From the NCBI RefSeq assembly GCF_042679305.1, contig NZ_JBHTMP010000029.1:24267-56266 (forward strand): 32,000 nucleotides of DNA, written 5' to 3'. The DNA comes from Micromonospora sonneratiae (GTDB lineage: Bacteria; Actinomycetota; Actinomycetes; Mycobacteriales; Micromonosporaceae). Both the position numbers and the translations under genes were made by a program. Positions 5,646-24,600 of the stretch are shown piece by piece (position 1 is the stretch's first letter; every line of letters begins with the position of its first letter). The notes beneath the pieces were generated by a model that was not told the DNA's origin, did not search any database, and saw only the letters and a list, made by a program, of their open reading frames with translations.

Positions 5646-6590
5646 CTACTGTCCGTGCCAAAGCGTGGCGCGGTTGCCGCTTAGTAGAAGCCGGAGCCTA
5701 TGCGTGAGTTCGTCTTTGAGTCTGACGTCGTCTGGGGCGAGGCGAATGAGGGCAGTGAGGGTGCTCAACTCACGTATGTCGAGGAGAACATTGTAACCGT
5801 CCCATAGGCGCAGGTCGTAGCCGTATGCGCGGGCGAAGAGGTCCACCGTGGCGGGAGATGTGCCGAAGCGGGGCTCCGCATAGGTGGGAATTAGGTCGAC
5901 CTCGCGCGGCCCGATGGAGACGGAGTCCCAGTCACCTAGCACGACGGAGTTACGATGACCATCGGTGTTCCATAGGAGATTGCCGACATAGAGGTCGGAA
6001 TGGATGAGGCCGCCCCCGAGTGGAAAGTCCAGCTGGTTGAAGGCCGCGCGTAGTTCATCGATGCGGACGGTCAACCACGCGTGCTCTTGATCTGTGACCG
6101 CAAGCCGGGCTGCAGGATCGGCGAGCGTTGCAGCTAATGATCGTAGTGGTTTGTAGTGAGGTAAATCCACTGAGGGGATAGGTAGTTTATGCAGCCGCGA
6201 AGCGATATGGCCGAGCGCCCTTGTGTCCGGCCAGCCGATGCCGGCGGGCTGCGGGTAGTAGCGCCAGAAGGTCACGACCACGGGGTGGCTGCAGGATTGG
6301 AAAATCATGGGCTGGTCAGCGCCGCTGGGGAGATCAGCGGGGGCGACGGTTGGGAATTCCTGCTGGATTAGCCCACGTATCACCTTAATAGAGGTTGTCG
6401 CCTTGGTGGTCGCACCTTCCCCGTATCCAATCCGAGCGACGACGGGAGCGCCGTCCAAGAGGTAAACGGCGTTCGCGAAGTGGCGGAGGAGCTTTGCGCC
6501 TGGCGGATATCCGGCCCGTTGACACGCCTGGTCCAGCAGACCCAATAGATCGGCAGGTGGGCGATTCGGGACGCGTTCATTTGTGGTCAC
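5646..6590 (-). CDS. APH-fold phosphotransferase (aminoglycoside phosphotransferase / kinase-like family)
   Basis: 314 aa. Catalytic loop GLIHSDLYVGNLLW (HxDxxxxN) and metal-binding VLGDWDSVSIGPREVDL. GTG start overlaps the upstream TGA (GTGA at 6587-6590). GC is lower than the flanking DNA. Confidence 0.85.
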   Translation of the reverse strand: MTTNERVPNRPPADLLGLLDQACQRAGYPPGAKLLRHFANAVYLLDGAPVVARIGYGEGATTKATTSIKVIRGLIQQEFPTVAPADLPSGADQPMIFQSCSHPVVVTFWRYYPQPAGIGWPDTRALGHIASRLHKLPIPSVDLPHYKPLRSLAATLADPAARLAVTDQEHAWLTVRIDELRAAFNQLDFPLGGGLIHSDLYVGNLLWNTDGHRNSVVLGDWDSVSIGPREVDLIPTYAEPRFGTSPATVDLFARAYGYDLRLWDGYNVLLDIRELSTLTALIRLAPDDVRLKDELTHRLRLLLSGNRATLWHGQ

Positions 6591-8002
6591 GAGGTGATCT
6601 CGCTACTGCTGCGGAAGCAGTTATCCCGTATATCATTGATCGTCTCGCGCATTGATTTCGCGATTTCGGAGCCGCGATATCTTGGTAACTCTAGTTCACG
6701 TCGGAGTTCGGACAAGGGCTGAAGAAGCGCCGGAATCTGCAACGACGGTGGCAATCTATAGACGACATCGAGCGCCTGGGCAGCACCGTCCAGGTCAACG
6801 CTGGGCTGGCGAACGCGGGCAGTGGAGACGTCAACCCAGGCGAGGGCTTCATCACCGTACGAGCGCTGGGTGGATGGTCCGCTTGCGTAGGCGCTGATTG
6901 TGGCGAGCGCGGTTCGCTCGGCGGCGGCTGGGCTGCCGATCCGCAGGAAGGCGGAACCGTCGTAGAAGTGTTGCTTGGCCAGTGCGAACGTCAAGATCCC
7001 GCCCAACTCGTCGAGCTCGTCCAGTTCGTCAGTGTATCGAGCCTCGATTAGGTCGCGAGCGGCAGAGGCGCGATCCATGGCTTCTATGGCCGCAGCGGTG
7101 TGACCCATCCGGCCATATGCGCGAGCCTCGATGCTGGCCAGCCGCACAAGGACTGTGCCAGGTATTTGCGCCTTCTGTGCATGGGTAAGGGCTTCTGCGG
7201 CGAACCGCAAACCCTCCTCTGGTCTGCCGTACCACTCACTGGTCATCGCCTGGTTGCCCAACACCCACGCTGTAAGTGTCTCGTTGTCGGCTTTCTCTGC
7301 GCACGCCAACGCGGCCTGTGCTTGGACTCTGGCTGCGTGTGGAAAGCCGAGGTCGCCCGAGGCATAGGCAAGCATCGCGCAAGTGGCGCCTGCGAGGAAA
7401 TACATGTCCTGTAGACGAGCAGGATCCGGCCGGTCTCTGATAAGCGAAAATAGGTCGTCACGCAGGTTTACAAGCTCCCGGAAGACCGGCGTTAGAGGGG
7501 AGTTGACGTAGTCGTGAGCCAAAGCAGCGACCCGTGCCCGTAACGATGTCAGAGGCCGCTCACCGATCCGAATCGAGTCAGCCCACATGGCGAACTCCGA
7601 TGACCTGCGAGACGCGGCGTCTACTATGTCCAGCGATTGAGGATCGCGCGGCAGGCTATCATCTGAGCTCGGCGGCTTGGCATCATCGGTTGCTAGTAAG
7701 TGATCAATAGCGTAGCCAAACTCGGCTTCCACGACTCGACATGTACTCGGTCGAGGCTCGGTGCCCACGTCGCCAGCTAGCCACCGGTCGAGTTGCCGAA
7801 GGCTTAGTGCGAAGTCGCGTATCCCAAGTGCTTGCGCCTTCCTGTTAAGGGCTTCCAAGGTCTGCTCACGAGTCAGGCGGCGTTGCCTCATGAGCCGTTG
7901 CATTCGTGTGATGCGCTGCCGGGCGGCCATAGCATCCCTCTCCAAAGCTGAGAAGTAGTTGCTGGCGGGCACACCGTAGCGAAAGCTATGTGGTGCCATC
8001 AT
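6587..8002 (-). CDS. XRE-family HTH regulator with TPR-like C-terminal domain (paralogue type of 2955..4319)
   Basis: 471 aa. N-terminal HTH region LTREQTLEALNRKAQALGIRDFALSLRQLDRWLAGDVGTEPRPSTCRVVEAEFG. Helical-repeat C-terminus (MYFLAGATCAMLAYASGDLG..., AQAALACAEKADNETLTAW...). Confidence 0.8.
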   Translation of the reverse strand: MMAPHSFRYGVPASNYFSALERDAMAARQRITRMQRLMRQRRLTREQTLEALNRKAQALGIRDFALSLRQLDRWLAGDVGTEPRPSTCRVVEAEFGYAIDHLLATDDAKPPSSDDSLPRDPQSLDIVDAASRRSSEFAMWADSIRIGERPLTSLRARVAALAHDYVNSPLTPVFRELVNLRDDLFSLIRDRPDPARLQDMYFLAGATCAMLAYASGDLGFPHAARVQAQAALACAEKADNETLTAWVLGNQAMTSEWYGRPEEGLRFAAEALTHAQKAQIPGTVLVRLASIEARAYGRMGHTAAAIEAMDRASAARDLIEARYTDELDELDELGGILTFALAKQHFYDGSAFLRIGSPAAAERTALATISAYASGPSTQRSYGDEALAWVDVSTARVRQPSVDLDGAAQALDVVYRLPPSLQIPALLQPLSELRRELELPRYRGSEIAKSMRETINDIRDNCFRSSSEITS

Positions 8003-8883: not shown

Positions 8884-10413
8884 ATGTCTGTGCCCGTGCC
8901 GTCTGATCCGGTGGCGGCCACGCTCGCCGCGGGCCGGCTTGGTGTTCCTGCGGTCGTGTTCTTCGTGATGTCCGCCGCTACGCCGTTGACGGTGGTGGCG
9001 GGGGTGGTGACCACGGGCTACGCCACGACCGGCCTGACGGGTATCCCGGTCGCGTTTCTGCTGATCGGTGTGGTCCTGGCCGTGTTTGCCGTCGGCTACG
9101 TCGCGATGGCGAGGCGGATGGCCAACGCGGGTGCCTTCTACGCCTACATCGCTCGCGGGGTCGGACGCCCGGTCGGTGTCGGCGCGGCGTGGGTCGCTCT
9201 GGTCTCCTACAACGCTTTGCAGGTCGGTTTGTACGGAGCGATCGGGTCAGCGATCGGGCCGCTGATTGAGCAGTGGCTCGACGTCCGGGTGGCGTGGTGG
9301 CTGATCGCCCTCGCCGGGTGGGCGGTGACCGCTGTTCTCGGCCTGCTACGGGTGGACATCAACGGAACCGTGTTGGCAGTGCTGCTGTTGGCCGAGGTCG
9401 CCGTCATCGTCGTCTACAGTGTGGCCGACCTTGCTCATCCCGCCGCAGACGCGATCAGCACGTCGGCCCTGTCACCAGGCAACCTTGTCGGCCCGGGAGT
9501 GGGGGCGATCTTGGCCTTGGCGGTGCTGGGTTTTGTCGGGTTCGAGTCCGCCGTGGTGTTCTCCGAGGAGTCGAAAGATCCGCAGCGGACAGTGCCCACG
9601 GCTACCTACATCGCCGTGGGCGGAACGGCACTGTTGTACGCGTTCGCGTCGTGGGCGATGACCGTGGCCACCGGTCCGGACCAGATCGTCGCCCGCTCCC
9701 AGACTGATGGCCCCGAGCTGATTTTCAATCTCGCCGAGGGGCACCTCGGGCCGACGGTCGTCACCGTTGGGCACACCCTGTTCGCGACCAGCATCGTCGC
9801 GGCGATGATCTCGTTCCATAACACGACCGCCCGATACATGTTCGCTCTGGGCCGGGAACGGGTGCTGCCGGCTGTTATGGCGCGTACCACCCGCCGTGGG
9901 AACGCGCCCCGTAACGCCAGCCTCGTTCAGTCCGGCATCGGCTTCGCGGTGATCGCCGTGTACGCGTTTGGTGGCTGGGACCCCCTGGTGCATCTGTTCT
10001 TCTGGGGTGGCACCTCCGGCGGCCTCGGGGTGCTTCTCCTCATCACCGCCACCGCGGTTGCTGTCCCGGTCTTCTTCACCCGCCACCCCGGTGGTGAGAA
10101 CACCTGGCGACGTGTCACCGCCCCTGCGGTCGCCTTACTGGCCCTGGCCGTCGTGTTGTACCTGGCGGTACGCAACTTCGGCACCCTGCTCGGAGTTCCA
10201 CCCGGCCACTGGCTTGCCTGGGCTGTACCGGCGACGCTTGTCAGCATCGGCGTGGCGGGGACCGGTTGGGGTGTCGTCCTGCGCGCTACTCGGCCGAGTG
10301 TCTATGCCGCCATCGGCCTCGGTGCCAAAGCCACCGGTGTTGGCCCGGCCCCGGCACGTCGGACCCGCGTCTACCGCAGCGTCCCCGCCCGGCAGGAGGA
10401 GACCCTCCGATGA
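8884..10413 (+). CDS. APC-superfamily amino acid permease
   Basis: About 12 hydrophobic segments. The motif NAGAFYAYIARGVGRPVG is typical of APC permeases. ATG 8884 follows GAGGGGG (8871-8877); the ORF is open from 8857. Confidence 0.9.
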   Translation: MSVPVPSDPVAATLAAGRLGVPAVVFFVMSAATPLTVVAGVVTTGYATTGLTGIPVAFLLIGVVLAVFAVGYVAMARRMANAGAFYAYIARGVGRPVGVGAAWVALVSYNALQVGLYGAIGSAIGPLIEQWLDVRVAWWLIALAGWAVTAVLGLLRVDINGTVLAVLLLAEVAVIVVYSVADLAHPAADAISTSALSPGNLVGPGVGAILALAVLGFVGFESAVVFSEESKDPQRTVPTATYIAVGGTALLYAFASWAMTVATGPDQIVARSQTDGPELIFNLAEGHLGPTVVTVGHTLFATSIVAAMISFHNTTARYMFALGRERVLPAVMARTTRRGNAPRNASLVQSGIGFAVIAVYAFGGWDPLVHLFFWGGTSGGLGVLLLITATAVAVPVFFTRHPGGENTWRRVTAPAVALLALAVVLYLAVRNFGTLLGVPPGHWLAWAVPATLVSIGVAGTGWGVVLRATRPSVYAAIGLGAKATGVGPAPARRTRVYRSVPARQEETLR

Positions 10414-11060
10414 CCAGCAGGACTCCGCTACCGCCGATTGTCACCGCCGGCTGGGGCGACATCGACACCACCGCCACCCTGATCGCCGACGCCTTCTACG
10501 ACCTGCCCGCAGCCGCCTGGCTCGTCCCCGAACCCGACCAGCGAAGTAGCGCCCTTCGCGGCCAGTTCAAGGTCCTCATCGAGCACGCCCTCTTCTACGG
10601 CCACGTCGACCTGCTCGATGACCGGTCCGCCGTCGCGGTCTGGTTCCACCACCTTGGCCCCACGATCCCGCCCTACAACTACGACCAGCGTCTCCACGCC
10701 GCCTGCGGCAACCACGTCAACCGATTCCGGCACCTCGACACCCTGTTCGACACCCACCACCCCGCCGAACCGCACCACCACCTTGGCCTGCTCGCCGTTG
10801 CTCCGGCGGCCCAGGGCACCGGACGCGGCACCGCCCTGCTGACCCACCACCACCGGTATCTCGACCAAGTCGACATCCCCGCCTACCTGGAGGCGAGCAG
10901 CCCCCGCAGCCGTGACCTTTACAGCCGCCACGGCTACCACCCACGCAGGGTGTTCACCCTTCCCGACAACACCCCGTTCTGGCCCATGTGGCGGCACCCC
11001 ACCACCCCGTCAACCCACATTCCCCAACCGCCAGGACCCCGATCCCGGCGAGTTCCCTAG
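10410..11060 (+). CDS. GNAT-family N-acetyltransferase
   Basis: ATG 10410 overlaps the permease TGA (ATGA), with GGAGGAG 8 nt upstream. Acetyl-CoA motif LGLLAVAPAAQGTGRGTALL, then PAYLEASSPRSRDLYSRHGY. Confidence 0.8.
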   Translation: MTSRTPLPPIVTAGWGDIDTTATLIADAFYDLPAAAWLVPEPDQRSSALRGQFKVLIEHALFYGHVDLLDDRSAVAVWFHHLGPTIPPYNYDQRLHAACGNHVNRFRHLDTLFDTHHPAEPHHHLGLLAVAPAAQGTGRGTALLTHHHRYLDQVDIPAYLEASSPRSRDLYSRHGYHPRRVFTLPDNTPFWPMWRHPTTPSTHIPQPPGPRSRRVP

Positions 11061-11062
11061 CC

Positions 11063-11113
11063 GGCGCCGGTGCCCGGGAACCGATCCCCCCATCCCACCC
11101 GGGCACCGGCGCC
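11063..11113 (+). terminator. Perfect 16-bp inverted repeat (stem-loop) immediately after the GNAT stop
   Basis: GGCGCCGGTGCCCGGG (11063-11078) and CCCGGGCACCGGCGCC (11098-11113) are exact reverse complements with a 19-nt loop. No T-tract follows, as is common for actinobacterial terminators. Confidence 0.45.
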
Positions 11114-11230: not shown

Positions 11231-11623
11231 GTGACGTCGACTCTGGACACCACCACGGTGCCCGACAGCGGTGCGATTCGGGTGATCCTCTCCGAGGTAG
11301 ACGTGGCGCGAATCTGCCACGAGGCGATCCGCGCACTGCAAACCGCGACCGGAGACAACGCCGTGCCCGGATGGGATGACGCCTCGGCCTCGCACCGCGA
11401 ATCGACGATTCGCACCGTCCGGGCGGTCCGCCAAGGAATGACCTGCGAGCAGATACACCAGGACTGGTGCAGGCGGATGCGCGCAGACAAGTGGACCTAC
11501 GGACCGGAGAAGAGCTACGAGTCGAGGACACACCCCTGCCTGGTCGGATACCAGGACCTGCCGAAACACGAGAAGGCCAAAGATGAACTGTTCCGGGTTA
11601 TCGTCCTCACGCTGGATCGATAG
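11231..11623 (+). CDS. RyR (ryanodine-receptor repeat) domain protein
   Basis: 130 aa with a GTG start after AAGGAAA. IHQDWCRRMRADKWTYGPEKSYESRTHPCLVGYQDLPKHEKAKDELFRVIV matches the RyR-domain signature W....GW.YG......K.HP.LV.Y..LP..EK.KD. Confidence 0.8.
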   Translation: MTSTLDTTTVPDSGAIRVILSEVDVARICHEAIRALQTATGDNAVPGWDDASASHRESTIRTVRAVRQGMTCEQIHQDWCRRMRADKWTYGPEKSYESRTHPCLVGYQDLPKHEKAKDELFRVIVLTLDR

Positions 11624-11977
11624 CCACAGGCGAGTCCTTGGCAGAGGTGCGACGCCCCGAAAAGCCTCCACCGAACCCGGAGTGGGCTAACAGTTGTACC
11701 CAACTGCCCGGGTGAACATGCGGGACGAGCCTACAAACCTCTGCGGCGGCAGCCGGAACTGGTGTGTTCACCTGACAGCGTCGCCTCCGCCGTTCGCCGT
11801 CCATGCAGCACGTCTGCCACATGTGGGCGACCCGGCAGCTACAAGCCGCTGAGGCCCACTCTGCACACAACCACCACGTCAGCCCCACCGCTTACCGGGG
11901 CCGCGCCTATCCCCGCGGTCCTGTCCCCAACCGCACCAGCCCATCGAAGACACTGACATGAAAGGCCGAAGACACAC

Positions 11978-14131
11978 ATGGACGTCCCCGATACGGCCGG
12001 CCCGCCGATCGTGGTGTGCCCCGACTGTCAGGGGCTCACCTTCGTAGTGAGGTCGTGCCACTGCCGCCACGGCGGTGACCAGTTCCTCATCGACGGGTCC
12101 CAGCCCTTCGGCGTCGACCGGGGCCCCTACCGTGACTGCGAGGTCTGCGACGGCGTCGGCAGCGTCAGCGAAGGTTGCCACCGCTGCGGCGGCAGCGGTG
12201 TATGCCGAGCGCAACTCGTCCTCACCGTAGCCAACATCGACTCGGGCCAGGTGGCCTCGGTCGACATCCTGCCCGGCATGCTCGCTCCTCGGCCGCTACC
12301 CAACGGCAGGTACGCCGCCGACCTGATGCCCGTGGTCCGTGGACTTGCCGGCAAAGTCGCCGCAGCCGAGGTCTTCGAGTCGATGATGCCGCAGACCCCC
12401 GTCACCGCGGACAGTGAACTGTTGGTCTTCATGCCACCGCAGTGGCACCCAGACCTACCCGAAACCGTTCGAGCGCTGCTCGGAGCCGTCGCGGTCGCCG
12501 ACGCCGCCCAGTACCGGCCCTGGCAGATCTACCTCGGACGCACCGGACCCGCATCACCAAACCTCAACCAACTGCTCACCGGTTTGTGCGCGGTAGCCGA
12601 CCAGGTCTGCCTAGACCTCGTCGTCGACCACCGGCGTGACACCTACGGAGATCCCGACAATCCGCTGCTGTGGTGGGGAATACGCTACGAGGCCCCAGAA
12701 TCAGCGGTGCCAGCCGACAGCCCGACCCACTGCAGCCTCCAGGAAGCGCTCACACATACCAACCCCGCTGAAGCCATCAGATCAGGCATCGGCATCGGTC
12801 GCAGACAGTCACCGGGATCCCGTCGCCATACCGCACCAGCGCACTGGGTCAACCCACCCCTGGCCGCCGCAGACCCGCCGCAGACCGTCGACTGGACCGA
12901 GGTTGCCCGACAGGTCACACAGGCCTGCGGAACCGGGCCCGGCGCGGTCGCCATCTGGCGTAACCGCCGCTGGCACTACAGCCCACTAGCCGAAACCGGC
13001 GTGACCGAAATCCTCAACCCGCAGGCCACCGGCCAGGTCACCGTACACACCGTGCCGATCCTGACACGAGCCCTGGAACCACCGCCGCCGACCTACTGGG
13101 GCCAGCCAATCCCGTCCCGCCGCTGTCCAGACTGCGCCAGCGGCACAGCGTGGAACCGATGCGGATGCGCCATCAACCTGCACGACGACCGCCCCGACCC
13201 AGACTGCGAGCTATGCAGCGGCACCGGCATACACGCACACCACTCCTGCATGACCTGCAGGGACATCACCCACATCCGCGCCGGAGTAGTTGTCACCCTC
13301 ACCGACCTGAACCAGCAGACCCTGCACATCAACTGGCGACCCGACGACAAGCCGACCACCCACCTGGTGGCGACCACCCCAGCAGGCACACCCGTTCTAC
13401 AACTCTCAGACGACTACCAGATCGCGAAGTGGACCCAACTGCTCGACACACCCAACACATCACTGATCGACCTGGCCACCGGCCTGGAACTCGACTCCAC
13501 GCTACGCGACGCACTGGTGATCACATCCGACCCGGCAGCCGACCCCGCCATCCAACACCTCCACCAAGCCAGTCGCGGCCGACCAGGAGCACGCCTGCTC
13601 GTACACACCAGCCAACCACCAAACCCCTCCACCGACCTACTCCAACTCCTCCGGCTCATCCTCGGCCTCGGCCTCACCGCCGAAATCACCGCAGAAAGCC
13701 ACCGGCACCGCGCCGGCGAGCCACTGTCCGTCCAAGGCGAACGCTGGCTCCTCAACGCCGTCCCACCCGGCACCCCCGTCAACGAGGTACAAACACCGAT
13801 CCACACCACGCTGCATCAAGCCACCAGCAACCTGAACAAGTACCTACCCACACTCCTTCACCAACTCGCGTCCGCCATGCCGCACCAGCCGCTGGCCGTC
13901 CCACAACAACCCACACCAGCAAACGTCGAAGTCGACAACCCAGAGACACTTATGCGCCGCCTCGCCGACCACTACCAAAACCACGCCGTCATGGCCCGCA
14001 TCGAGCACCACCGCTGCCGCATCTACGCCGGTGGCTTCGAGTACGCACAACTGGTCGCCACCGCACCCACCCTGCCCACAGCAGTCCGCGCGCTACTCGG
14101 CACCACCACCACAGGTGGCGAAAGCCCATAA
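11978..14131 (+). CDS. Large hypothetical protein with two DnaJ-CR-like zinc-finger clusters
   Basis: 717 aa with consistent high-GC3 codon usage. Cluster 1 (aa 14-76, nt 12017-12205): CPDCQG, CHC, CEVCDGVG, CHRCGGSG. Cluster 2 (aa 383-427, nt 13124-13258): CPDCASG, CGC, CELCSGTG, CMTC. No enzymatic motif recognised. Confidence 0.8.
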   Translation: MDVPDTAGPPIVVCPDCQGLTFVVRSCHCRHGGDQFLIDGSQPFGVDRGPYRDCEVCDGVGSVSEGCHRCGGSGVCRAQLVLTVANIDSGQVASVDILPGMLAPRPLPNGRYAADLMPVVRGLAGKVAAAEVFESMMPQTPVTADSELLVFMPPQWHPDLPETVRALLGAVAVADAAQYRPWQIYLGRTGPASPNLNQLLTGLCAVADQVCLDLVVDHRRDTYGDPDNPLLWWGIRYEAPESAVPADSPTHCSLQEALTHTNPAEAIRSGIGIGRRQSPGSRRHTAPAHWVNPPLAAADPPQTVDWTEVARQVTQACGTGPGAVAIWRNRRWHYSPLAETGVTEILNPQATGQVTVHTVPILTRALEPPPPTYWGQPIPSRRCPDCASGTAWNRCGCAINLHDDRPDPDCELCSGTGIHAHHSCMTCRDITHIRAGVVVTLTDLNQQTLHINWRPDDKPTTHLVATTPAGTPVLQLSDDYQIAKWTQLLDTPNTSLIDLATGLELDSTLRDALVITSDPAADPAIQHLHQASRGRPGARLLVHTSQPPNPSTDLLQLLRLILGLGLTAEITAESHRHRAGEPLSVQGERWLLNAVPPGTPVNEVQTPIHTTLHQATSNLNKYLPTLLHQLASAMPHQPLAVPQQPTPANVEVDNPETLMRRLADHYQNHAVMARIEHHRCRIYAGGFEYAQLVATAPTLPTAVRALLGTTTTGGESP

Positions 14132-14165
14132 CTGCACACCCGCTGGCCGGCCGCCAAGGAAAACA

Positions 14166-14187
14166 GAGGACATAACCCTGTGTCCTC
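14166..14187 (+). terminator. 7-bp hairpin 35 nt after the 717-aa gene
   Basis: GAGGACA (14166-14172), 8-nt loop, TGTCCTC (14181-14187). No T-tract. Confidence 0.3.
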
Positions 14188-14370
14188 ACGAAACACTCGA
14201 TCCGCCGCCGAAGTGTTGATACCGGCAGCGCCGTACGGGTTGGTCGTTGACAGAACAGGATGCGAACCGGGCGGAATGCAGACGTCAGTAAAAACAGGCC
14301 TAGCGAGATAAGCGTGCTCGAGATGTGAAGGGCTTCTTGCTTCCCGTACTGCGCATAGCACGCGGACTGA

Positions 14371-14391
14371 CGCCCGCAGGGGCGGCTTTTT
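14371..14391 (+). terminator. Intrinsic-terminator-like hairpin with T-run
   Basis: CGCCC-GCAG-GGGCG followed by GCTTTTT (T-run 14387-14391). Plus-strand polarity only. The stem is short at 5 bp. Confidence 0.35.
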
Positions 14392-14500
14392 CAACATTCG
14401 TCCACTGTTGTCTACGTCTAGCCGGGAGATCGCCCTTCGAAGACATCGGACGCATCGGGCGCATATCCCTGGTCGGAACTTTCATCCGAGGAAGTTGGAG

Positions 14501-14683
14501 ATGGCAGAAGCTCTCACCGTTGCTGTCGGCACACTGTTCCTGGTCGCAGCGCTGATAAAGGCCGGAGCATCCGCAGAAACGTGGTTCCTGATCCGACTCC
14601 GCCTGAGTCGGTTGCTCACCGCCGCCGTGGTGCTGCTTGTGATGGGATTCGTGTTTATCCACCTATTGAGAAGCGAAAAATGA
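14501..14683 (+). CDS. Small two-helix membrane protein (60 aa), hypothetical
   Basis: Internal ATG 14501 of ORF 14408..14683, preceded by GAGGAAG with 6-nt spacing. MAEALTVAVGTLFLVAALIKAGASAETWFLIRLRLSRLLTAAVVLLVMGFVFIHLLRSEK has two hydrophobic spans separated by an Arg-rich loop. Lies in low-GC DNA. Confidence 0.4.
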   Translation: MAEALTVAVGTLFLVAALIKAGASAETWFLIRLRLSRLLTAAVVLLVMGFVFIHLLRSEK

Positions 14684-14997
14684 TGGAGAACATAATAGGG
14701 TCGCGTTTGTCCGAACAGAGCTACCAGCCGGCCCCCTTCCGGTTTAGCTGACACGAGTTGGCTAGCGTTCGCAACAAGCACACGGGACGGATAGCAGCGG
14801 TATGTGCCCCAGGTGCAACACGCCGCGACTTACTCACCTAACGCCAAGGTACATTGCAGTGCGAGTCGTGCGGTAATCGCAGCAGCCACCACCTGGGACG
14901 CTGCGTAGTAGCTCCAGGCCGCTACCACCTCAGTCAGGAACGCGGTCGAGAGCCTCCGAACCGCGCCCCGCCCGATAGAGGCTGCCATTGAGGCTGA

Positions 14998-15591
14998 GTG
15001 TTTGAGAAAGGAACAACAGCGGCAGAAATGACCATGCTTCCCGACATCAAAACTCCAAAAGATTTGGAAGAGCTGCAGCGACTCGCCAGGGGCGAGCGTG
15101 ACCGTACACCCGTGCCGATAGGAATCCGCACGATTTCAAATCCGCAACCGCCCAAAGGCAGCGCTACCGTCATTAAAAGCGTTGACCATCTACTCCTCCG
15201 CGCAATGCGGTCGGAGAACGGTCAGACACGAAGGGTCGCCGAGCGAATACAAAACCTCGCCACCGAACTGAACCGACGAGTTCAGGCCGAAGAGAATACG
15301 CGGCGGCAGCGATTGGAGGACGAAGTCGCCGAACTAGAAATGCAGCTAGCCATGGCCCGCGCCAAACTGCGTTCGCTGGACCGAGCCGCGACCACCTCGA
15401 TATCCGTCCCACTCCGTTCAGACGGCACGAAAAGCGCTGTCGACGCAGCCGCCGTACGGCTCTGGGCCGCCAACAACGGCTACGTAGTGAAACCCACCGG
15501 ACGTGTCCCGACAGTAGTCATCGACGCCTGGCGTGCAGCGAACATTCAAGTCGAAACCACGGAAGACGATCGAATGACGCGATCCCAGTAG
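14998..15591 (+). CDS. Lsr2-like nucleoid-associated protein (Lsr2-type C-terminal DNA-binding domain, divergent coiled-coil N-terminus)
   Basis: The C-terminus AAAVRLWAANNGYVVKPTGRVPTVVIDAWRAAN parallels the Lsr2 DNA-binding domain ([29 protein letters not shown]). The central region is heptad-like (RRQRLEDEVAELEMQLAMARAKLRSL). Start uncertain: GTG 14998 after GAGG, or ATG 15028 after AAAGGA. Confidence 0.7.
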   Translation: MFEKGTTAAEMTMLPDIKTPKDLEELQRLARGERDRTPVPIGIRTISNPQPPKGSATVIKSVDHLLLRAMRSENGQTRRVAERIQNLATELNRRVQAEENTRRQRLEDEVAELEMQLAMARAKLRSLDRAATTSISVPLRSDGTKSAVDAAAVRLWAANNGYVVKPTGRVPTVVIDAWRAANIQVETTEDDRMTRSQ

Positions 15592-15979
15592 GGAATGGCG
15601 GCAAAACTGACAAAGCTGGAGACCAAACAAGGCGGTAACTGATCACTCTGCCCGTCGCAACGCGTCCATCGGTGCTGCCCGAACCGAAAGGTCCGCATGA
15701 CAGCCTAGAAAACTCCTGGAGGCCCCGTGATTCCCCGATGCTGCTGCTGCGCGACTTCCACGGTGACGCCTGCGAGTTGACCGACCCAGGGCGGGCCGGA
15801 AGCTGCCTCGACACACAGATCGAGACGATCATGCTGCACGGTTGACCGCGGGCAAACGATCGCGATCGACTCTGATAGCCACGCCGTGCTATTGATCGAC
15901 GTGGACGCCCATGTCGACCACGCGTTGGTGCGGCCGCTTCCGGCACTGCCGCTGGCACGTACGCCAGCACGGGCTCTAA

Positions 15980-16333
15980 CTACTGACTCCGGCTACCGTT
16001 GCTCGAGGTTGCCGGCTTTTGGTCGGTGCGGTAGGACTCGCTCCAGCGCTGCAGGTCCGCGAGGAAGGCCATGAGGAGCGGTAGCAGGTGCATGCCGGCT
16101 GGCGTGAGTTGATACAGCGCGCCGTCGGGTCCGCCCGGTCGGCAGATGAGTCCTTGGTCGTGTAGCCGGCGTAGGGCTTCGACCAGTGACTTCGAACTGG
16201 GTGTTGGTTGGATGGCTCGGAGTAGATCGGTAAAGCGCATTGGCTGCTGTTGCTGCAGCGCCGTCATGATCTCCAGGGTCCAGCGGCGCCCGCAGAGATT
16301 GATCGCATCGTAGTAGGTCTGGAAGATGTTCAC
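15980..16333 (-). CDS. HxlR-family winged-helix transcriptional regulator
   Basis: 117 aa. LCGRRWTLEIMTALQQQQPMRFTDLLRAI...SSKSLVEALRRLHDQGLICR...YQLTPAG is the HxlR signature. Confidence 0.85.
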   Translation of the reverse strand: MNIFQTYYDAINLCGRRWTLEIMTALQQQQPMRFTDLLRAIQPTPSSKSLVEALRRLHDQGLICRPGGPDGALYQLTPAGMHLLPLLMAFLADLQRWSESYRTDQKPATSSNGSRSQ

Positions 16334-16432
16334 CCTGCCTTCCCCCCAAGGTCGGCTACTTCGGAGAGTGTAGGGGGCGAGCGCACTACGTGAATACCCA
16401 CTTCACGCATCGTCCGGGATGATCGCCCGAAT

Positions 16433-16783
16433 CTAGTGGGGTGCCTGTATTTGTGGGGAAGAATGTGACTTTGTGGCGGCGTATCCCTTGGCGAGGGCGG
16501 TGAGCGAGTTCGCCAGGGCGTATCCGAGAGACGAGAGTTGGTAGGTCGCCGAGGGGTTGGCTGTGTCCCAACTGCCGGAAGAGTCGCGTTGGAGGAGTCC
16601 GACTGCCGCCAACCAGTTCAGATCTTCGTCCAGGATGCCGCCATCATGTGCGCCTTTGGTTAGCTGGCTCAGGGTTGCCCGGTCGATGTTACGTAGCGTT
16701 ACAAGAGCCGCGACCGCGCCCGACCTCCTGCCGAGTTCCCTAGCAAGGTCATGTGGTTGAGGAACCTTGGAATCGGCGCTCAT
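16433..16783 (-). CDS. Winged-helix DNA-binding protein, HxlR/MarR-like (tentative)
   Basis: I prefer ATG 16783 (M9 of the track ORF), preceded by AAGGAG with 9-nt spacing. ATLSQLTK...ILDEDLNWLAAVGLLQR...ATYQLSSLGYALANSL has a helix-turn-helix plus wing layout resembling the neighbouring HxlR protein. Confidence 0.45.
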   Translation of the reverse strand: MSADSKVPQPHDLARELGRRSGAVAALVTLRNIDRATLSQLTKGAHDGGILDEDLNWLAAVGLLQRDSSGSWDTANPSATYQLSSLGYALANSLTALAKGYAATKSHSSPQIQAPH

Positions 16784-16961
16784 GTGTGGCGACTCCTTAA
16801 TGGCCATTGCACAAAATTTTAGGTGTCTAGTGCTGGCGGGCGTAGTGTCGCAAACCCGACAGTGCGTGTCGTGTATGTCTCATTTATTCGCAAATTTAGT
16901 TCCCCTTTGGTGCTTACGGCTGGGTAGTTACCTCTTGGTACTCACGTTGCGGTAATCGCGG
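16784..16961. promoter_or_regulatory. AT-rich divergent control region between the winged-helix pair and the lipoprotein/tad operon
   Basis: Hand count of 16801-16920 gives 59/120 G+C (49%), against more than 70% in the flanking operon. Contains GCACAAAATTTTAG and CGCAAATTTAG boxes. Function is inferred from position only. Confidence 0.35.
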
Positions 16962-17681
16962 GTGTTGGGTGTAGAGGTGATTGCAGACCTTGAGATGTGG
17001 AACTTCCACGGGGGTGTCGTGGTGCTGTCGGCCGAGCGTGAGCAGACTGGTGTTGCACTCAGTGAAGTAACTACCAGTGAGCATCGCCGGAAAGCGCGCT
17101 TTCGCGGCTTCCAGTTCCTGAGCGGCTCGCCTTGGCCTCGTACCAGGCCGGTTCTTGTTGCTTTGACTCTTGCCCTTGCCCTGACCGGATGTAACAGCGG
17201 GGACGCGGGCAACCGCTCCACGCCGACTACTCCGACCTTATCGGCACCTCAAGGGGATTCCCGTTCCATAGCCGAAGCTGCAGCACTGGAGGCGTATCGC
17301 GGAATGTGGCAGGCGTACGCCAAGGCCGGGTTGACCGCGAACCCTGACGAGCCGGATCTCGCAAAGTACGCGAGCGAACGGGCGCTGTCGACGCTCCGAG
17401 AAGGGCTCGCGGGTACTAAACGCGACGGACACGTCATCAAGGGCGAGCTTGGCTCAGCTCCGCAGGTGGAGCGAGCTAGCCCAGCAGCCCAGCCGATGAC
17501 CGTAAGCATCATCGATTGCCTCAACACCGAGAAGTTTCTTACCTACACGACCTCCGGCGATCCGGTCGACGACGAGCCCGGTGGGCGTCGACTAACCAGA
17601 GCGACGGTCACGAACATCAGTACGGGCGAAGGCTGGAAAGTAACCGGCCTCGGCATACAGGCGGTAGGAACATGCAGCTAA
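16962..17681 (+). CDS. Putative lipoprotein (start uncertain)
   Basis: Lipobox LALALTGC, preceded by a basic/hydrophobic segment RTRPVLVALTLA. The mature part is soluble (EAYRGMWQAYAKAGL...). Several upstream in-frame starts are possible. The end overlaps the next gene by 10 nt. Confidence 0.6.
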   Translation: MLGVEVIADLEMWNFHGGVVVLSAEREQTGVALSEVTTSEHRRKARFRGFQFLSGSPWPRTRPVLVALTLALALTGCNSGDAGNRSTPTTPTLSAPQGDSRSIAEAAALEAYRGMWQAYAKAGLTANPDEPDLAKYASERALSTLREGLAGTKRDGHVIKGELGSAPQVERASPAAQPMTVSIIDCLNTEKFLTYTTSGDPVDDEPGGRRLTRATVTNISTGEGWKVTGLGIQAVGTCS

Positions 17682-18535
17682 AGCACTGGGCGAGCAAACT
17701 GCAAATACTGGCGGCGGCCAGTCTTTGCACCGCGGTTCTCCTCAGCGCACCAGCACACGCAGGCGATGGAGTCGGCGGGGTTGACTGCTCAGAGTTTCCC
17801 AGCGCGCAAGAGTGCGACGTAGTAGCCGGCACACCAGGTAACGGTGGGAGCACCGGTGATGGCAGTGCCGGGAACGGCGAAGGTTCGGGCAGTGGTGGGG
17901 GTAGTACGCCTTGCCGTTATGTGCGTTTGCCGCAGCAGGATCCGCCTCCGGCTGGTGCGGGTGCGGGGGGCTGGTATGTGCAGGTGTGCCGTGTGGACGG
18001 CAGTGTGTCGACGAGCCCGCCGTTGTGGCTGGCGGCGGGGCAGGTGGCTGATCCGCAGGCGTTGGCGCAGGTGGCTGTGTCGCGGCTGCGGCTTCCGGCG
18101 CCGGCGATCCGGCGGAATCCCGCTTCGGCTGCGGGGGTGATGGTCCAGGTGCCGGTGTGGCTGTGGGTGGACGGGTCGACGTGGGGGGCGCGTTCGGCGA
18201 CGGCGTCGGTGCCGGGCATGAGCGTGACCGCGACCGCGACGCCGGTCCGGGTGGTGTGGACCCCGGGCGATGGGACCGCTGATGTGGTGTGCCACGGGCC
18301 GGGTACCCCATGGCGTGCGGGTACCGATCCGCGAGCGGTGTCACCGTGCGGTCACACGTATCGGACCAGTTCTGCGGGCGTGCCGGGTAACAAGTTCACG
18401 CTCCGGGCGACGGTGACGTGGTCGGTGTCGTGGGCTGGTGGTGGGCGAAGCGGCACGGTGCCGTCGTTGATGACGTCGTCGTCGGTGGGGTTGCCGGTGG
18501 CGCAGTCGCAGTCGGTCGTGACGGGGCAACGATGA
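17672..18535 (+). CDS. Secreted protein of unknown function (signal peptide, Gly/Ser-rich linker, Cys pairs)
   Basis: ATG 17672 (M53 of track ORF 17516..18535). MQLKHWASKLQILAAASLCTAVLLSAPAHA is a signal peptide. High GC3. Confidence 0.7.
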   Translation: MQLKHWASKLQILAAASLCTAVLLSAPAHAGDGVGGVDCSEFPSAQECDVVAGTPGNGGSTGDGSAGNGEGSGSGGGSTPCRYVRLPQQDPPPAGAGAGGWYVQVCRVDGSVSTSPPLWLAAGQVADPQALAQVAVSRLRLPAPAIRRNPASAAGVMVQVPVWLWVDGSTWGARSATASVPGMSVTATATPVRVVWTPGDGTADVVCHGPGTPWRAGTDPRAVSPCGHTYRTSSAGVPGNKFTLRATVTWSVSWAGGGRSGTVPSLMTSSSVGLPVAQSQSVVTGQR

Positions 18536-19215
18536 GCGTCACGGTCGACCGTGCTCGGATCCCGGTTCCGGTGGCACAGCCGTCGAAGGATGCCGCGCGG
18601 CGGTCTGGTCAGCGCAGCGGTCGGCGGGTCGTGCTCGGGGCGTTGTTGGTGCTGCTGAGCGTGGTCGTGTTTTGGCAGGTGGATCTGCGGGCGAACGAGG
18701 GGCGGTCGTTCCTGGCTGCTGCGCGGTCGGTGGCCGCCGGTCAGGTGATTGCTGATGTCGATGTGCAGGTGGTGCGGGTGTCGAACGTGTCTGGGCTGGT
18801 GTTGCTGCCGGCTGACCAGCGTAGTCAGGTCGTGGGCCGTACTGCGGTGGTGCCGCTGGCGGTAGGCAGTTTGCTGACGGCGGCGCAGGTGGGTCCGGTG
18901 GCGTGGCCGCCGGCTGGTCAGGCGGTGATCGCGTTGCCGGTCAAACCTGGTCGTGCTCCGGCGGGGTTGGCGGCGGGAGCACGGGTTGTGGTTCTTGTGG
19001 TGCCTCCGGCGACGGTGGGGCAGGCGGCGGGCCCGGTGGGTAGTAGCGGGTCTGATGGGGTGCGGCGGGGTGTGGCCACGGTGGTGTCGGTCGAGGCCGG
19101 CGCGGATCAGGTGGGGAGCCTGTTGGTGACTCTGCTGCTGGCCGCCGACGCGGCGGAGGCGGTCGCTTCGGCTCCGGGGGATGTGTCGCTGGTGCAGCTC
19201 GGACCGGAAGGGTAG
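18532..19215 (+). CDS. CpaB/RcpC-like Flp pilus assembly protein (N-terminal TM + SAF-like domain)
   Basis: ATG 18532 overlaps the upstream TGA (ATGA). TM segment VVLGALLVLLSVVVFW followed by AARSVAAGQVIADVDVQVVRV...VVGRTAVVPLAVGSLLTAAQV, typical of the SAF/CpaB family. Confidence 0.7.
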   Translation: MSVTVDRARIPVPVAQPSKDAARRSGQRSGRRVVLGALLVLLSVVVFWQVDLRANEGRSFLAAARSVAAGQVIADVDVQVVRVSNVSGLVLLPADQRSQVVGRTAVVPLAVGSLLTAAQVGPVAWPPAGQAVIALPVKPGRAPAGLAAGARVVVLVVPPATVGQAAGPVGSSGSDGVRRGVATVVSVEAGADQVGSLLVTLLLAADAAEAVASAPGDVSLVQLGPEG

Positions 19216-19219
19216 TGCC

Positions 19220-19957
19220 GTGTTGGTCGTGTGCGCGTCGGTGTCCGGGGCTCCGGGGGTGTCAACGGCGGCGGTGGGGCTGGCAGCGGGATGGCCACAG
19301 GCCGGGGGTCTGCTGTTGGAGGCCGATCCGTCCGGGGGAGTGGCCGCTGCCCGGTTCGGCCTGGCACAGCAGCCGGGGTTGGCGTCGCTGGCAGCGGCGG
19401 CGCGCCATGGCGGCGTGGGCGGCGTCCTTTCTGCGCATGTGCAGCGGTTGCCGCTCGGTGTTGGTGTGGTGGTGGCACCGGGGTCGGCGGATGTGGCTGC
19501 CGGATCGGTCGGTGTGTTGGCCGGCTCCGCGGATGCGTTGCGGGATGTGGCGCCGGTGGTGGTCGCTGACGTGGGACGGCTCTACCCGGAAAGCCCGGCG
19601 AGGGCGTTGGTGGCTGCTGCGGACGCGGTGGTTCTGGTGACCACGCCTACGACCGAATATCTGGACCATCTCGATGCTCGCCTTGGGTGGCTGCGGAACC
19701 TGGTAGACAGGGGCTGGATCGGGTTGGCGGTCTCCGGCAGAGGGCTGTACCCGGCGGCGGAGATCGGGGCGCGGCTGGCTCTGCCGGTGTGGGCGCAGTT
19801 GCCCCGTGACCAGCGTGGAGCTGCCGTGTTGGGCGGGAGACTGGCTGGTCGGACGTGGCACCGGACTCCGCTGGCACGCGCCTTGCGTGATCTGGCCGGC
19901 ACCTTGCACTGGTTCGCGACGCGCCGTGACACCGCTCAACTTGGGGCGTTGCGGTGA
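19220..19957 (+). CDS. TadZ/CpaE-like ParA/MinD-fold protein with degenerate Walker A
   Basis: GTG 19220, 4 nt after the cpaB-like stop. VLVVCASVSGAPGVSTAAVGLA replaces the deviant Walker A KGGVGKTT and has no Lys. LLLEADPSGG and AVVLVTTPT are MinD-like strands. Confidence 0.65.
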   Translation: MLVVCASVSGAPGVSTAAVGLAAGWPQAGGLLLEADPSGGVAAARFGLAQQPGLASLAAAARHGGVGGVLSAHVQRLPLGVGVVVAPGSADVAAGSVGVLAGSADALRDVAPVVVADVGRLYPESPARALVAAADAVVLVTTPTTEYLDHLDARLGWLRNLVDRGWIGLAVSGRGLYPAAEIGARLALPVWAQLPRDQRGAAVLGGRLAGRTWHRTPLARALRDLAGTLHWFATRRDTAQLGALR

Positions 19958-22981: not shown

Positions 22982-23015
22982 ACCTGACCGAATCCATACA
23001 GAAGGAGTACCCGTC

Positions 23016-23216
23016 GTGCCCAGAGCACTCGCCCTACTGACCCTGGTCCGCCTCACCCTGACCGACCGGATCCGCCGCCTACGTGACAGCGGCGACCGCG
23101 GCTCCGAAACCACCGAGAAAGTGCTGTGGATCGCGTTCCTGGTCATACTCGTCGTCGGCGTGTACGCGATCTTCCAATCCAAGATCATCACGAAGATCAC
23201 CGGCATCAACCTGTAA
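23016..23216 (+). CDS. Flp-type prepilin-like small protein
   Basis: 66 aa. GTG start 8 nt after GAAGGAG. Basic leader, then DRG|SETTEKVLWIAFLVILVVGVYAIF (Gly, Glu at +5, hydrophobic helix). Confidence 0.6.
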   Translation: MPRALALLTLVRLTLTDRIRRLRDSGDRGSETTEKVLWIAFLVILVVGVYAIFQSKIITKITGINL

Positions 23217-23219
23217 ACG

Positions 23220-24572: not shown

Positions 24573-24600
24573 CCCCACCTATCTCCGACCGGGAGTCCCA

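Follow-up and report, generated by a model that had tools for sequence, protein, structure and literature searches.

A tandemly duplicated, predicted zinc-hairpin protein of Micromonospora sonneratiae and the operon family to which it belongs

The window analysed here, a 32,000-nucleotide stretch of a Micromonospora sonneratiae contig, includes a gene for a 717-aa protein with two cysteine-rich modules which, according to the initial annotation, was a candidate for a novel system with the RyR-domain gene upstream of it. The locus raises the questions of what this protein is, and whether the adjacent gene is its partner. We favour, at a probability of about 0.4, a non-enzymatic protein that is stabilised by zinc, acts in binding or as an adaptor, and would belong to a regulated conflict or stress module.

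Architecture of the 717-aa protein

The coordinates and length given for the open reading frame in the initial annotation are exact, and its ATG start is confirmed (Table 1). It is a genuine gene under purifying selection, with a dN/dS of ~0.31 relative to its nearest relative, and the 77 kDa product (pI 5.9, zero transmembrane segments) is predicted to be a mildly acidic cytoplasmic protein; it is 100% identical to 'hypothetical protein GCM10027290_29600 [Micromonospora sonneratiae]'. Searches with the protein against Pfam, NCBIfam and PADLOC matched 0 families, and P-loop, HExxH, GxSxG and HKD motifs were sought in it and not found, which agrees with the original view that there is no known catalytic domain; neither a signal nor a WXG/LXG-type N-terminus was found. 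No PDB sequence significantly matches the family profile, to which the window protein aligns over its full length.

Table 1. Positions in the window of the zinc-hairpin gene, the segments of its product and the gap that precedes it
Feature	Positions	Strand	Remarks
Non-coding gap between the RyR gene and the zinc-hairpin gene	11624..11977	+	354 bp
Zinc-hairpin family gene, complete	11978..14131	+	ATG start, 717 aa
Zinc module 1 (aa 11-77)	12008..12208	+	CxxCxG, CxC, CxxCxGxG, CxxCxGxG; predicted to bind two Zn
Domain A1 (aa 78-272), alpha/beta	12209..12793	+	Conservation and AlphaFold model
Domain B1 (aa 305-366)	12890..13075	+	One helix and three long strands; conserved AIWRxxRW
Zinc module 2 (aa 374-434)	13097..13279	+	CxxC, CxC, CxxCxGxG, CxxC; duplicate of module 1
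Domain A2 (aa 435-631)	13280..13870	+	Duplicate of A1
Domain B2 (aa 654-708)	13937..14101	+	Helix, three strands, helix

A unit of ~350 aa, composed of a predicted two-zinc hairpin, an alpha/beta domain and a small helix-three-strand domain, has been duplicated in tandem to give this protein, because profiles built from its two halves match each other: with 77 sequences the comparison gives E=4.4e-15 (98.4% probability over 280 columns), and the reversed-profile null gives E=0.58. An internal repeat had been expected from self-comparison, and it is detectable by BLASTP of the N-terminal against the C-terminal half (E=4e-4, over the Zn modules) as well as by profile-profile comparison with six sequences (E=4.2e-9). 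The Zn modules alone match with E=1.3e-8, the halves still match after removal of the Zn modules (E=3e-5; null 0.49), and domain A1 matches A2 with E=2e-5 (reversed null 0.68). The ~300 aa behind each module had been described as unassignable, which is correct, but the two stretches are also duplicates of each other. The order of secondary-structure elements is identical in both halves of a confident AlphaFold model, and from this order domain B2 appears to be the counterpart of B1, with a non-significant sequence match (E=0.055).

The model has a pLDDT of 89.8 (84-97 over aa 11-80, the region of zinc module 1); an earlier model from six sequences had a pLDDT of 57. Foldseek searches of the better model against PDB and BFVD gave no match at E<=0.001, and a 'sliding clamp' that came up as the top Foldseek match was rejected with a TM of about 0.1. 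Domain A1 opens with RAQLVLTVANxDxG.VAS, the best-conserved motif in the family, and includes D213, E/D217, R219, W233 and R236; it has 43 strictly conserved positions, whereas A2 has 28. The near-invariant polar residues of the N-terminal half (R77, Q79, N86, D88, S94, D213, E217, R219, R236 and R328) could, judging from their conservation, make up an unrecognised active site, which weakens the case against an enzyme.

The cysteine motifs follow the same order in both modules and are at all of the residues listed for them in the initial annotation. Those of module 1 are CPDC14-17, CHC27-29, CEVC54-57 and CHRC67-70, followed by LVLTVANIDSGQ, and those of module 2 are CPDC383-386, CGC395-397, CELC410-413 and CMTC424-427, followed by VVVTLTDLNQQ. 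All 16 motif cysteines are conserved across the family and intact in the window protein. In module 1 the outer cysteines are kept in 75-76 of 77 sequences and the inner ones in 69-70 of 77, with loss only as a block, and in module 2 the outer cysteines are kept in 77 of 77 and the inner ones in 70 of 77, again with block loss. Since the inner pairs are lost as a block and the outer pairs are kept, a nested hairpin of the DnaJ cysteine-rich (CR) type fits, with motif 1 paired with 4 and motif 2 with 3, and each unit is predicted from its sequence to carry such a two-zinc hairpin.

Matches to CR-type families are weak and scattered among the relatives. Sub-threshold matches to PF00684 are found in 14 of 38 relatives (best E=3.4e-4, below the gathering score), matches to Anti-TRAP (PF15777) in four of the 38 (best 6.5e-4), and a match to BSD2_CRD (PF25436) in one relative; the window protein itself matches none of the three. 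Searches of PDB sequences with the family profile gave sub-threshold matches to Ydj1 and DNAJA2, and the structure search gave weak matches to giant-virus DnaJ/CR proteins. The DnaJ-CR likeness that had been proposed for the modules is supported by the PF00684 matches together with the block loss of inner cysteines, and the reported lack of a J-domain also stands, as PF00226 has no match in the window protein at E<=1. An HPD tripeptide at aa 157-159 sits in the A1 family motif WxPDLP, in which only W156 and P158 are conserved there. No DnaJ_C domain was found in the window protein by Pfam, and Foldseek gave no significant match to DnaJ structures.

The modules share with the DnaJ CR domain (PF00684; E. 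coli DnaJ, Ydj1, PDB 1NLT) four cysteine motifs, mostly CxxCxGxG, and a spacing compatible with two zinc sites, but the window protein is below every Pfam threshold and its second motif is CxC instead of CxxCxGxG. It also differs from DnaJ in having no J-domain, G/F region or DnaJ C-terminal domain, and in having the module twice, each copy fused to about 290 aa of unassigned domains. Anti-TRAP of Bacillus and BSD2 of plants are likewise instances of a CR-type zinc hairpin outside of DnaJ, in partner-specific protein binders; however, these are small proteins that are essentially one CR domain, whereas the window protein has 717 aa, with two modules and about 580 aa of other domains, and homology to either is undetectable beyond the zinc motifs.

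Operon partners and neighbours in the family

The family consists of 163 clusters at 50% identity and is confined to Micromonosporaceae and Glycomycetales, with up to six copies per genome; paralogues are 30-40% identical, and the copy number is high and variable. The genome scan for relatives was run with the six-sequence alignment, and 87 other loci with a family member, representing 83 distinct places, were fetched; no relatives were found on viral contigs. The window protein shows the hallmarks of the family: two units, 8+8 motif cysteines, RAQLVLTVAN and AIWR. No description of the family was found in the literature, and term searches of a 2026 BREX survey (PMC12839542; XRE, DUF397, DivIVA and Micromonospora absent) and a 2020 eLife paper on conflict systems were empty. 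The family has no characterised relatives and represents an entirely unannotated multi-copy operon.

In the usual operon order a DivIVA-motif protein, which matches DivIVA in Pfam, is followed by an ~86-aa protein with a C..C..H..C pattern (p86) and the zinc-hairpin protein is last; the DivIVA-motif gene is present in 57 and the p86 gene in 53 of the 83 loci. In relatives with public gene calls, the gene directly upstream overlaps the zinc-hairpin start by 4 nt. The p86 partner forms 704 clusters, and a great many Micromonospora species have it. Upstream of the operon, in the opposite orientation, there is usually either a WhiJ/BldB-like pair, with XRE-DUF5753 in 41 of 83 loci and DUF397 in 36, or a GntR regulator, present in 36 of 83. 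Many loci have arrays of ~86-aa helical-hairpin paralogues (c9, c6 and c7, the last weakly related to DUF6244), and neighbours of the conflict type include CdiA_C/SitI3, SitI3, VapBC and Imm1/YezG-like genes. A mobile element of the AICE/pSAM2 type, to which GntR and Nudix neighbours might point, was rejected, as the conserved neighbours include no integrase, Rep or FtsK-like Tra genes.

The operon's own DivIVA-motif protein recalls the MksBEFG plasmid defence of Corynebacterium (PMC10123090), which is likewise positioned by a DivIVA scaffold. However, there is no component homology between the two, and the family partner is small and dedicated, unlike the essential polar DivIVA; the window is without a DivIVA-motif partner.

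BREX-cluster genes are present in nine of the 83 loci (~11%), distributed over at least six paralogue clades. In most of the nine a type-2 BREX/Pgl system has the module in its pglX-pglY interval, and in six the zinc-hairpin gene immediately precedes pglY in the same orientation. The full set of type-2 components (pglW, pglX, pglY, pglZ, brxD and brxHI) is confirmed in two loci, L018 and L058; neither the window protein nor the BREX-embedded relative of L018 matches any BREX or other PADLOC model. In S. coelicolor the pglWX and pglYZ operons are 6 kb apart (PMC4365076). Although the module is embedded among BREX genes in these relatives, most family members, the window copy included, are away from BREX: there are no BREX genes among the main ORFs of the 32-kb window by Pfam, and no member of the relatives' BREX gene clusters. 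The low proportion of BREX-linked loci was counted against the adaptor proposal.

The regulators suggest a developmental alternative, in which WhiJ/BldB-type developmental switches have the family as their cargo, as they do abaA or iosA, and the zinc-hairpin protein is a cytoplasmic factor with no defence role that modulates hyphal growth, septation or sporulation in Micromonosporaceae together with its DivIVA-like partner. We consider this unlikely. In Streptomyces, WhiJ9 activates its neighbour iosA, a sporulation inhibitor likewise without a known fold, via repeats in the common intergenic region, and the iosA-whiJ9-bldB9 and abaA-type loci are similar to those here in having an operon head-to-head with XRE-DUF5753 and then DUF397, in forming paralogous multi-copy clusters, and in having a cargo without a known fold (PMC10294661). 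In contrast, the cargo here is a three-gene operon unrelated to IosA/AbaA, about equally many family loci use GntR, and the window copy has no adjoining regulator. Also counted against the adaptor proposal was that the established roles of WhiJ/BldB clusters are in development and in the regulation of antibiotics, not in defence.

Several further observations suit a developmental role. The whiJ-like genes are confined to morphologically complex actinomycetes, DivIVA-type proteins organise polar growth, and the breadth of p86 in Micromonospora fits a lineage-typical cellular function. The BREX position would then merely reflect a WhiJ-like pair that is also in the pglX-pglY gap of Streptomyces, where SCO6629/30 are an XRE/DUF397 pair that, by gene numbering, presumably adjoins pglX. 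Against this, the module recurs in type-2 BREX in so many paralogue clades and mostly in one position and orientation relative to pglY, toxin, immunity and toxin-antitoxin neighbours are frequent, and the high and variable copy number of such divergent paralogues is more typical of conflict genes.

The same neighbours might indicate that the protein is a carrier, presentation part or accessory of a polymorphic-toxin or secretion-linked system, which we regard as improbable. One relative, P0033, has a C-terminal extension with a DddA-like deaminase toxin domain and Imm1, among Imm1 and YezG-like genes; DUF6244, CdiA_C and SitI3 genes follow the nearest relative of the window protein, and the helical-hairpin arrays with their DUF6244-related c7 recur in many loci. 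However, P0033 is the only fusion among the 163 clusters, and its immunity domain is read in one frame with the rest, which points to a fusion created by gene calling or assembly; domain fusions in other members of atypical length were uninformative. The last domain of the window protein is B2, the protein lacks a toxin domain as well as the N-terminal signals, and no homologues of CdiA_C, SitI3 or DUF6244, nor any other toxin or immunity homologue, were found downstream of it in the window.

A housekeeping-type chaperone seems equally hard to defend, whether as a J-domain-less DnaJ-like holdase or as a thiol-disulfide oxidoreductase using its CR modules as in DnaJ, BSD2 and LQY1. Substrate binding is known for the CR domains of DnaJ, as is disulfide-isomerase activity for some CR proteins, and the CxxCxGxG motifs and the sub-threshold matches to PF00684, Anti-TRAP and BSD2_CRD are consistent with such a role. 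Yet the J-domain and the DnaJ C-terminal domain are absent, the narrow lineage, multiple copies and variable contexts are unlike those of housekeeping chaperones, and the family comes with operon partners and local regulators of its own.

The window copy and its surroundings

The closest relative of the window protein is 65% identical to it, and the two form a diverged clade that has lost all operon partners and lies in unrelated surroundings. Searches of the window and of the locus of its nearest relative (L001) with tblastn and profile HMMs gave no match to the DivIVA-like protein or p86, and XRE-DUF5753 (WhiJ-like), DUF397 (BldB-like) and GntR genes are absent beside the window gene. That the window copy has none of these, and no BREX genes, nearby was counted against the adaptor proposal. 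The 354-bp gap upstream has no convincing ORF, no remnant of the DivIVA-like or p86 genes and no sigma-70-like promoter match; the best Rfam match around the gene (E=0.53) is not significant and falls well short of the gathering score, and a search of the 32-kb window for tRNAs found none. The gene end adjoins a lower-GC stretch, as had been noted (GC 0.59-0.60, compared with 0.65-0.70), and repeats that might mark island boundaries are at chance level only, the 19-nt pair at 11043/16726 matching at 17 of 19 positions where about one such pair is expected per 8 kb.

With all partners missing, the window copy could be a functionless relic, a decaying orphan paralogue without an operon. It is on a long branch, differs from the other members at 19 of the 120 positions that are highly conserved in the family, and has a GC3 of 0.78 compared with 0.88-0.93 in the four other family members measured. 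However, eight of the 19 departures are identical in the nearest relative, where four further positions deviate too, and the shared changes are thus clade-specific and not random; the 717-codon frame and all of its motif cysteines are intact, and the dN/dS value also argues against decay. We give the relic interpretation little credence.

The RyR gene is an accidental neighbour. A novel two-gene system with it is extremely improbable, for although the genes are adjacent on the same strand and the RyR domain is real (PF02026, E=1.4e-10), the RyR protein has 0 tblastn matches in the 87 other family loci (83 distinct places), in the nearest relative a TPR gene takes its place upstream, the DNA of the two closest relatives is similar only as far as the edges of the zinc-hairpin gene, and the 354-bp gap differs from the 4-nt overlap with the upstream gene in canonical loci. 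The C-rich codon style said to be common to both genes is non-specific: third-position C is 0.57 in the zinc-hairpin gene and 0.41 in the RyR gene, and it is 0.53-0.60 in three other plus-strand genes of the window (GNAT, a 454-aa ORF and a 1028-aa ORF).

A proposed adaptor role and its implications

The adaptor reading that we favour pictures the protein as pseudo-dimeric and zinc-stabilised, with two CR-type hairpins that would hold a ligand as CR domains do in DnaJ, Anti-TRAP and BSD2; the ligand would be a protein or, with lower probability, a nucleic acid. Members encoded in the canonical operon would be brought to curved membrane, such as hyphal tips or septa, by their DivIVA-like partner, and would be turned on by the WhiJ-like or GntR regulator next to the operon. 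They may then contribute to a conflict or stress response as accessory sensors or regulators, and do so together with Pgl/BREX when they are encoded within such a cluster. The window copy would stand alone, either working with no partners at all or relying on ones encoded elsewhere in the genome.

A more specific possibility, which we hold to be rather unlikely, is that the DivIVA-like/p86/zinc-hairpin operon and its WhiJ/BldB-like switch belong to actinomycete immunity as a so far unrecognised accessory or sensing module, the window gene being its stand-alone version. If so, it would be a conserved insert of type-2 BREX/Pgl systems that helps to detect infection or to gate toxic Pgl activities, and immune sensors or adaptors would gain a new fold class in the zinc-hairpin protein.

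As an orphan paralogue the window gene adds little directly, and it is the family that is of more interest and a worthwhile lead. Micromonospora and its relatives are major antibiotic producers, and the operon is widespread, multi-copy and unannotated in them; it would be controlled by WhiJ/BldB switches of the kind that governs development in Streptomyces. Should the family prove to be developmental, it would provide a new cargo class of WhiJ-type switches outside of Streptomyces. Where it is embedded among BREX genes, the module, probably regulated and accompanied by a putative DivIVA-type localisation partner, offers a concrete and testable candidate for a part in Pgl/BREX phage sensing or regulation.

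Zinc modules and tandem duplication

The 717-aa product of the zinc-hairpin protein gene is predicted to be cytoplasmic with a pI of 5.9, and is 100% identical to a 'hypothetical protein' of Micromonospora sonneratiae. The ORF and all of its Cys motifs lie where the initial annotation had placed them, and a similar hydrophobic strand directly follows each zinc module. The tandem duplication that it had proposed is borne out by self-comparison. BLASTP of the N-terminal against the C-terminal half gives E=4e-4 across the zinc modules, and half-versus-half family profiles align with E=4.2e-9 when built from six sequences and E=4.4e-15 (98.4% probability, 280 columns) when built from 77, against E=0.58 for a reversed-profile control. 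Profile comparison still finds the halves alike when the zinc modules are removed (E=3e-5; control 0.49), and the order of secondary-structure elements is identical between them in a confident structure model. Because the halves match above chance and have the same secondary-structure order, we conclude that a whole ~350-aa unit is duplicated in tandem, each copy comprising a zinc module, then domain A (alpha/beta) and the small domain B (one helix, three strands); domains B1 and B2 compared by sequence alone are not significantly similar (E=0.055).

The protein has no match in Pfam, NCBIfam or PADLOC, and a sequence search of solved structures with the family profile found none; in that search the zinc modules matched only Ydj1 and DNAJA2, below threshold and within their cysteine-rich regions. 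When 38 full-length relatives were scanned one by one there were recurrent weak matches, all under the curated cut-offs: the DnaJ central cysteine-rich domain (PF00684) in 14 relatives (best E=3.4e-4), zf-AtTam37 in six, and Anti-TRAP in four. In DnaJ and Ydj1 structures motifs 1 and 4 hold one zinc, and motifs 2 and 3 the other. Of 77 genomic family members, 75–77 keep the outer pair (motifs 1 and 4) in each module, whereas the inner pair (motifs 2 and 3) is missing from 6–7 and only ever as a block, which fits a nested hairpin of this type. The sub-threshold PF00684 matches and the block loss both agree with the earlier reading of the modules as putative DnaJ-CR-like zinc hairpins.

AlphaFold gave a poor model from a six-sequence alignment (pLDDT 57) and a confident one from 38 sequences (mean pLDDT 89.8, pTM 0.86). 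A Foldseek search of the latter against PDB and BFVD returned nothing at E≤0.001, with the top matches having TM-scores near 0.1, and giant-virus DnaJ/CR-type proteins as the only domain-relevant sub-threshold matches. Among the libraries searched (for structures, PDB and BFVD) the protein has no relative of known catalytic function or known structure. The CR-type zinc hairpin is the sole known element, with the remaining protein and its operon undescribed; we file the protein as a member of no family, its nearest known kind being a CR-type zinc protein lacking a J-domain.

Features of the window and of one related locus (L029)
Feature	Position	Strand	Remarks
454-aa ORF	2955-4319	+	no Pfam family; GC3 0.86, typical coding
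Second lower-GC segment	5000-8500		GC 0.60-0.63
APH-type phosphotransferase	5646-6590	-	GC3 0.68
471-aa ORF	6587-8002	-	no Pfam family; GC3 0.65
GNAT gene	10266-11060		
Terminator-like hairpin	11063-11113		perfect 16-bp inverted repeat, 19-nt loop, GGCGCCGGTGCCCGGG ... CCCGGGCACCGGCGCC
Stand-alone 130-aa RyR-domain protein	11231-11623	+	PF02026, E=1.4e-10
Zinc-hairpin protein gene	11978-14131	+	ATG start
Zinc module 1 (residues)	C14xxC17, C27xC29, C54xxC57xGxG, C67xxC70xGxG		from sequence
Zinc module 2 (residues)	C383xxC386, C395xC397, C410xxC413xGxG, C424xxC427		from sequence
Lower-GC stretch	14132-17500		GC 0.59-0.60
Possible 91-aa protein	14408-14683		hydrophobic stretches, two membrane helices by eye
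197-aa protein	14998-15591		coiled-coil N-terminus and Lsr2 DNA-binding domain; GC3 0.62
HxlR regulator	15980-16333	-	
124-aa ORF	16433-16807	-	no family; GC3 0.66
Tad/Flp-type pilus locus	18418-27687		SAF, T2SSE, T2SSF, TadE-like and TadG-like proteins
L029 array	6119-7779 of L029	-	opposite strand to zinc-hairpin operon; equivalents in about 17-37 other loci

The family and its operon

A word-indexed search yielded six relatives only. The exhaustive profile search extended the family to 163 clusters when grouped at 50% identity, and about 50 of these are full length. Scanning one genome per species identified 108 relatives, of which 80 loci were kept. These are in Micromonospora, Plantactinospora, Solwaraspora and other Micromonosporaceae, the only exceptions being metagenome bins, of which one carries the label Chloroflexi and another is assigned no further than Actinomycetota. 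Phytomonospora and Glycomyces have more distant members, and no relative was found in the viral contigs searched. There are up to six copies per genome (strain B7E4), and the family is lineage-restricted and multi-copy. We note that the member in the 'uncultured Chloroflexi' bin (L072, contig CALGSZ010000152.1) has both of the operon partners described below; as the family is otherwise strictly actinomycete, the label is probably a binning error.

Across the 83 distinct loci examined, a gene for a DivIVA-motif protein (about 105–200 aa, very basic; Pfam DivIVA matches of E 4e-4 to 2e-7) lies just upstream of the zinc-hairpin gene in 57, and in 53 a gene for an ~86-aa protein (p86) with invariant C60, C70, H76 and C80 is between the DivIVA-motif and zinc-hairpin genes. 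Public gene calls exist for four loci (L002, L003, L005 and L008), and in each of them the immediate upstream gene overlaps the start of the zinc-hairpin gene by 4 nt. The p86 family comprises 704 clusters at 90% identity, and among its best 120 matches every one with a named source is a 'hypothetical' protein of Micromonospora or Plantactinospora. Upstream and on the opposite strand there is an XRE-HTH plus DUF5753 gene (41/83 loci) followed by a DUF397 gene (36/83), a pair of the WhiJ/BldB type, or a GntR-type regulator (36/83), such that one or other type is present in 73 of the loci. In Streptomyces venezuelae, WhiJ9 binds repeats in a shared intergenic region and activates its neighbour iosA, whose product likewise has no known fold (PMC10294661); purely as an analogy, this precedent favours a model in which the neighbouring regulator controls the operon locally.

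Many loci have a further array upstream, containing ~86-aa helical-hairpin paralogues (clusters c9 and c6, and the N-terminus of c7). The array in L029 has two such paralogues of ~86–105 aa (c9, c6), together with c7, a ~220-aa protein with the same hairpin domain and a C-terminal hydrophobic segment. An acidic ~145-aa protein (c2) accompanies the array; c7 is weakly related to DUF6244, none of the four belongs to a Pfam family, and PADLOC gives no match for c7 or c2. Together these genes may form an uncharacterised set related to secretion or toxins.

Position within type-2 BREX clusters

BREX-cluster genes are present in nine of the 83 loci, mostly with the module placed between pglX and pglY (L018, L047, L051, L053, L056, L058, L083 and L087). 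PADLOC identifies the BREX set of L018 and L058 as PglW (E=1.5e-152), PglX (E=0), BrxC/PglY (E=0), PglZ (E=2.5e-284), BrxD (E=1e-203) and BrxHI (E=0); it has no match for the proteins of the module itself. Six of the nine have the zinc-hairpin gene co-directional with pglY and 42–260 bp upstream of it, and the BREX-linked copies are spread over at least six different paralogue clades. By our own estimate, 20 kb taken at random from an 8-Mb genome would cover a given single locus well below 1% of the time, and linkage in 9/83 loci, mostly at one internal position, is therefore far from chance. Seven of the eight listed loci have the XRE-DUF5753 and DUF397 pair inside the type-2 BREX/Pgl cluster of these Micromonosporaceae, the exception being L087, with only the DivIVA-like and zinc-hairpin genes and no WhiJ/BldB-like pair. 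Overall, the family has a conserved three-gene operon, regulators of its own alongside it, and a placement within type-2 BREX that recurs.

From the gene numbering, we take the SCO6629/SCO6630 pair to lie within the gap between the S. coelicolor pglWX and pglYZ operons. These operons are 6 kb apart (PMC4365076), and SCO6629/SCO6630 is an XRE/DUF397 pair (PMC10364602). The text of a 2026 BREX survey (PMC12839542) never mentions XRE, DUF397, DivIVA or Micromonospora. Conflict-type neighbours in other loci are SitI3 immunity genes and VapBC. One metagenomic member (P0033; L089 1893-5015) has C-terminal DddA-like/SCP1.201-type deaminase and Imm1 domains in the same ORF, with Imm1 and YezG-like genes ahead of it; the fusion may be genuine, or else an artefact of gene calling or assembly.

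The window copy and the role of the family

The window protein and its nearest relative, L001 (65% identity), form a separate long branch in a neighbour-joining tree and are the only clade without any operon partner; profile HMMs found no DivIVA-like or p86 remnants in the window or the L001 locus. The GC3 of the two genes (0.78 and 0.77) is lower than the 0.88–0.93 of four other measured family members. At 120 positions that are ≥90% conserved the window protein deviates at 19, of which eight deviations are identical in L001, and L001 is deviant at four more. With dN/dS between the two genes at about 0.31 (dS 0.73) and these shared deviations, the window copy is a diverged but constrained sub-family, and a decaying pseudogene is rejected on the same evidence. 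It is a real gene without the family's operon, regulator and BREX context.

The novel system that had been proposed with the upstream RyR gene is refuted by the co-occurrence criterion that the initial annotation itself had set. The RyR domain is confirmed, but tblastn of this protein against the 87 other fetched loci gave no match, nor did the window's GNAT, Lsr2-like and HxlR genes. L001 instead has a 928-aa TPR gene upstream, with DUF6244, CdiA_C and SitI3 genes downstream, and its nucleotide similarity to the window is restricted to the zinc-hairpin gene (window 11945-14100, 74% identity). The 'C-rich codon style' said to unite the RyR and zinc-hairpin genes is not specific. The terminator-like hairpin begins 3 nt past the GNAT stop codon, which suggests that the RyR gene opens a new transcription unit.

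The surroundings of the gene are ordinary, with permease, GNAT and RyR genes upstream. Downstream is the lower-GC stretch with the Lsr2-like and HxlR genes, which looks horizontally acquired; boundary repeats and a tRNA were not found for it, and no tRNA, RNA family or convincing island-boundary repeats were found around the window copy. The Tad pilus operon follows, with a SAF-domain protein (CpaB-like in our own reading), a T2SSE ATPase, two T2SSF, two TadE-like and one TadG-like protein; after it comes a protein of 1028 aa that has a BTAD domain at its C-terminus.

We infer a role in binding, or as an adaptor, for the zinc-hairpin protein, which would be pseudo-dimeric and stabilised by zinc. 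Within the canonical operon it would act alongside the DivIVA-type localisation partner, a WhiJ-like or GntR switch would control the module, and its role would be in conflict or stress response; the Corynebacterium MksBEFG system is a precedent for defence positioned by DivIVA (PMC10123090). A purely developmental role of the family is a serious rival. The N-terminal half, the better conserved of the two, may also conceal an enzyme, as R77, Q79, N86, D88, S94, D213, E217, R219, R236 and R328 are near-invariant; the earlier statement that there is no known catalytic domain holds, the database searches being empty and the protein having no J-domain, P-loop, HExxH, GxSxG or HKD motif. The main interest is in the BREX and WhiJ context of the family, and not in the orphan copy of the window.
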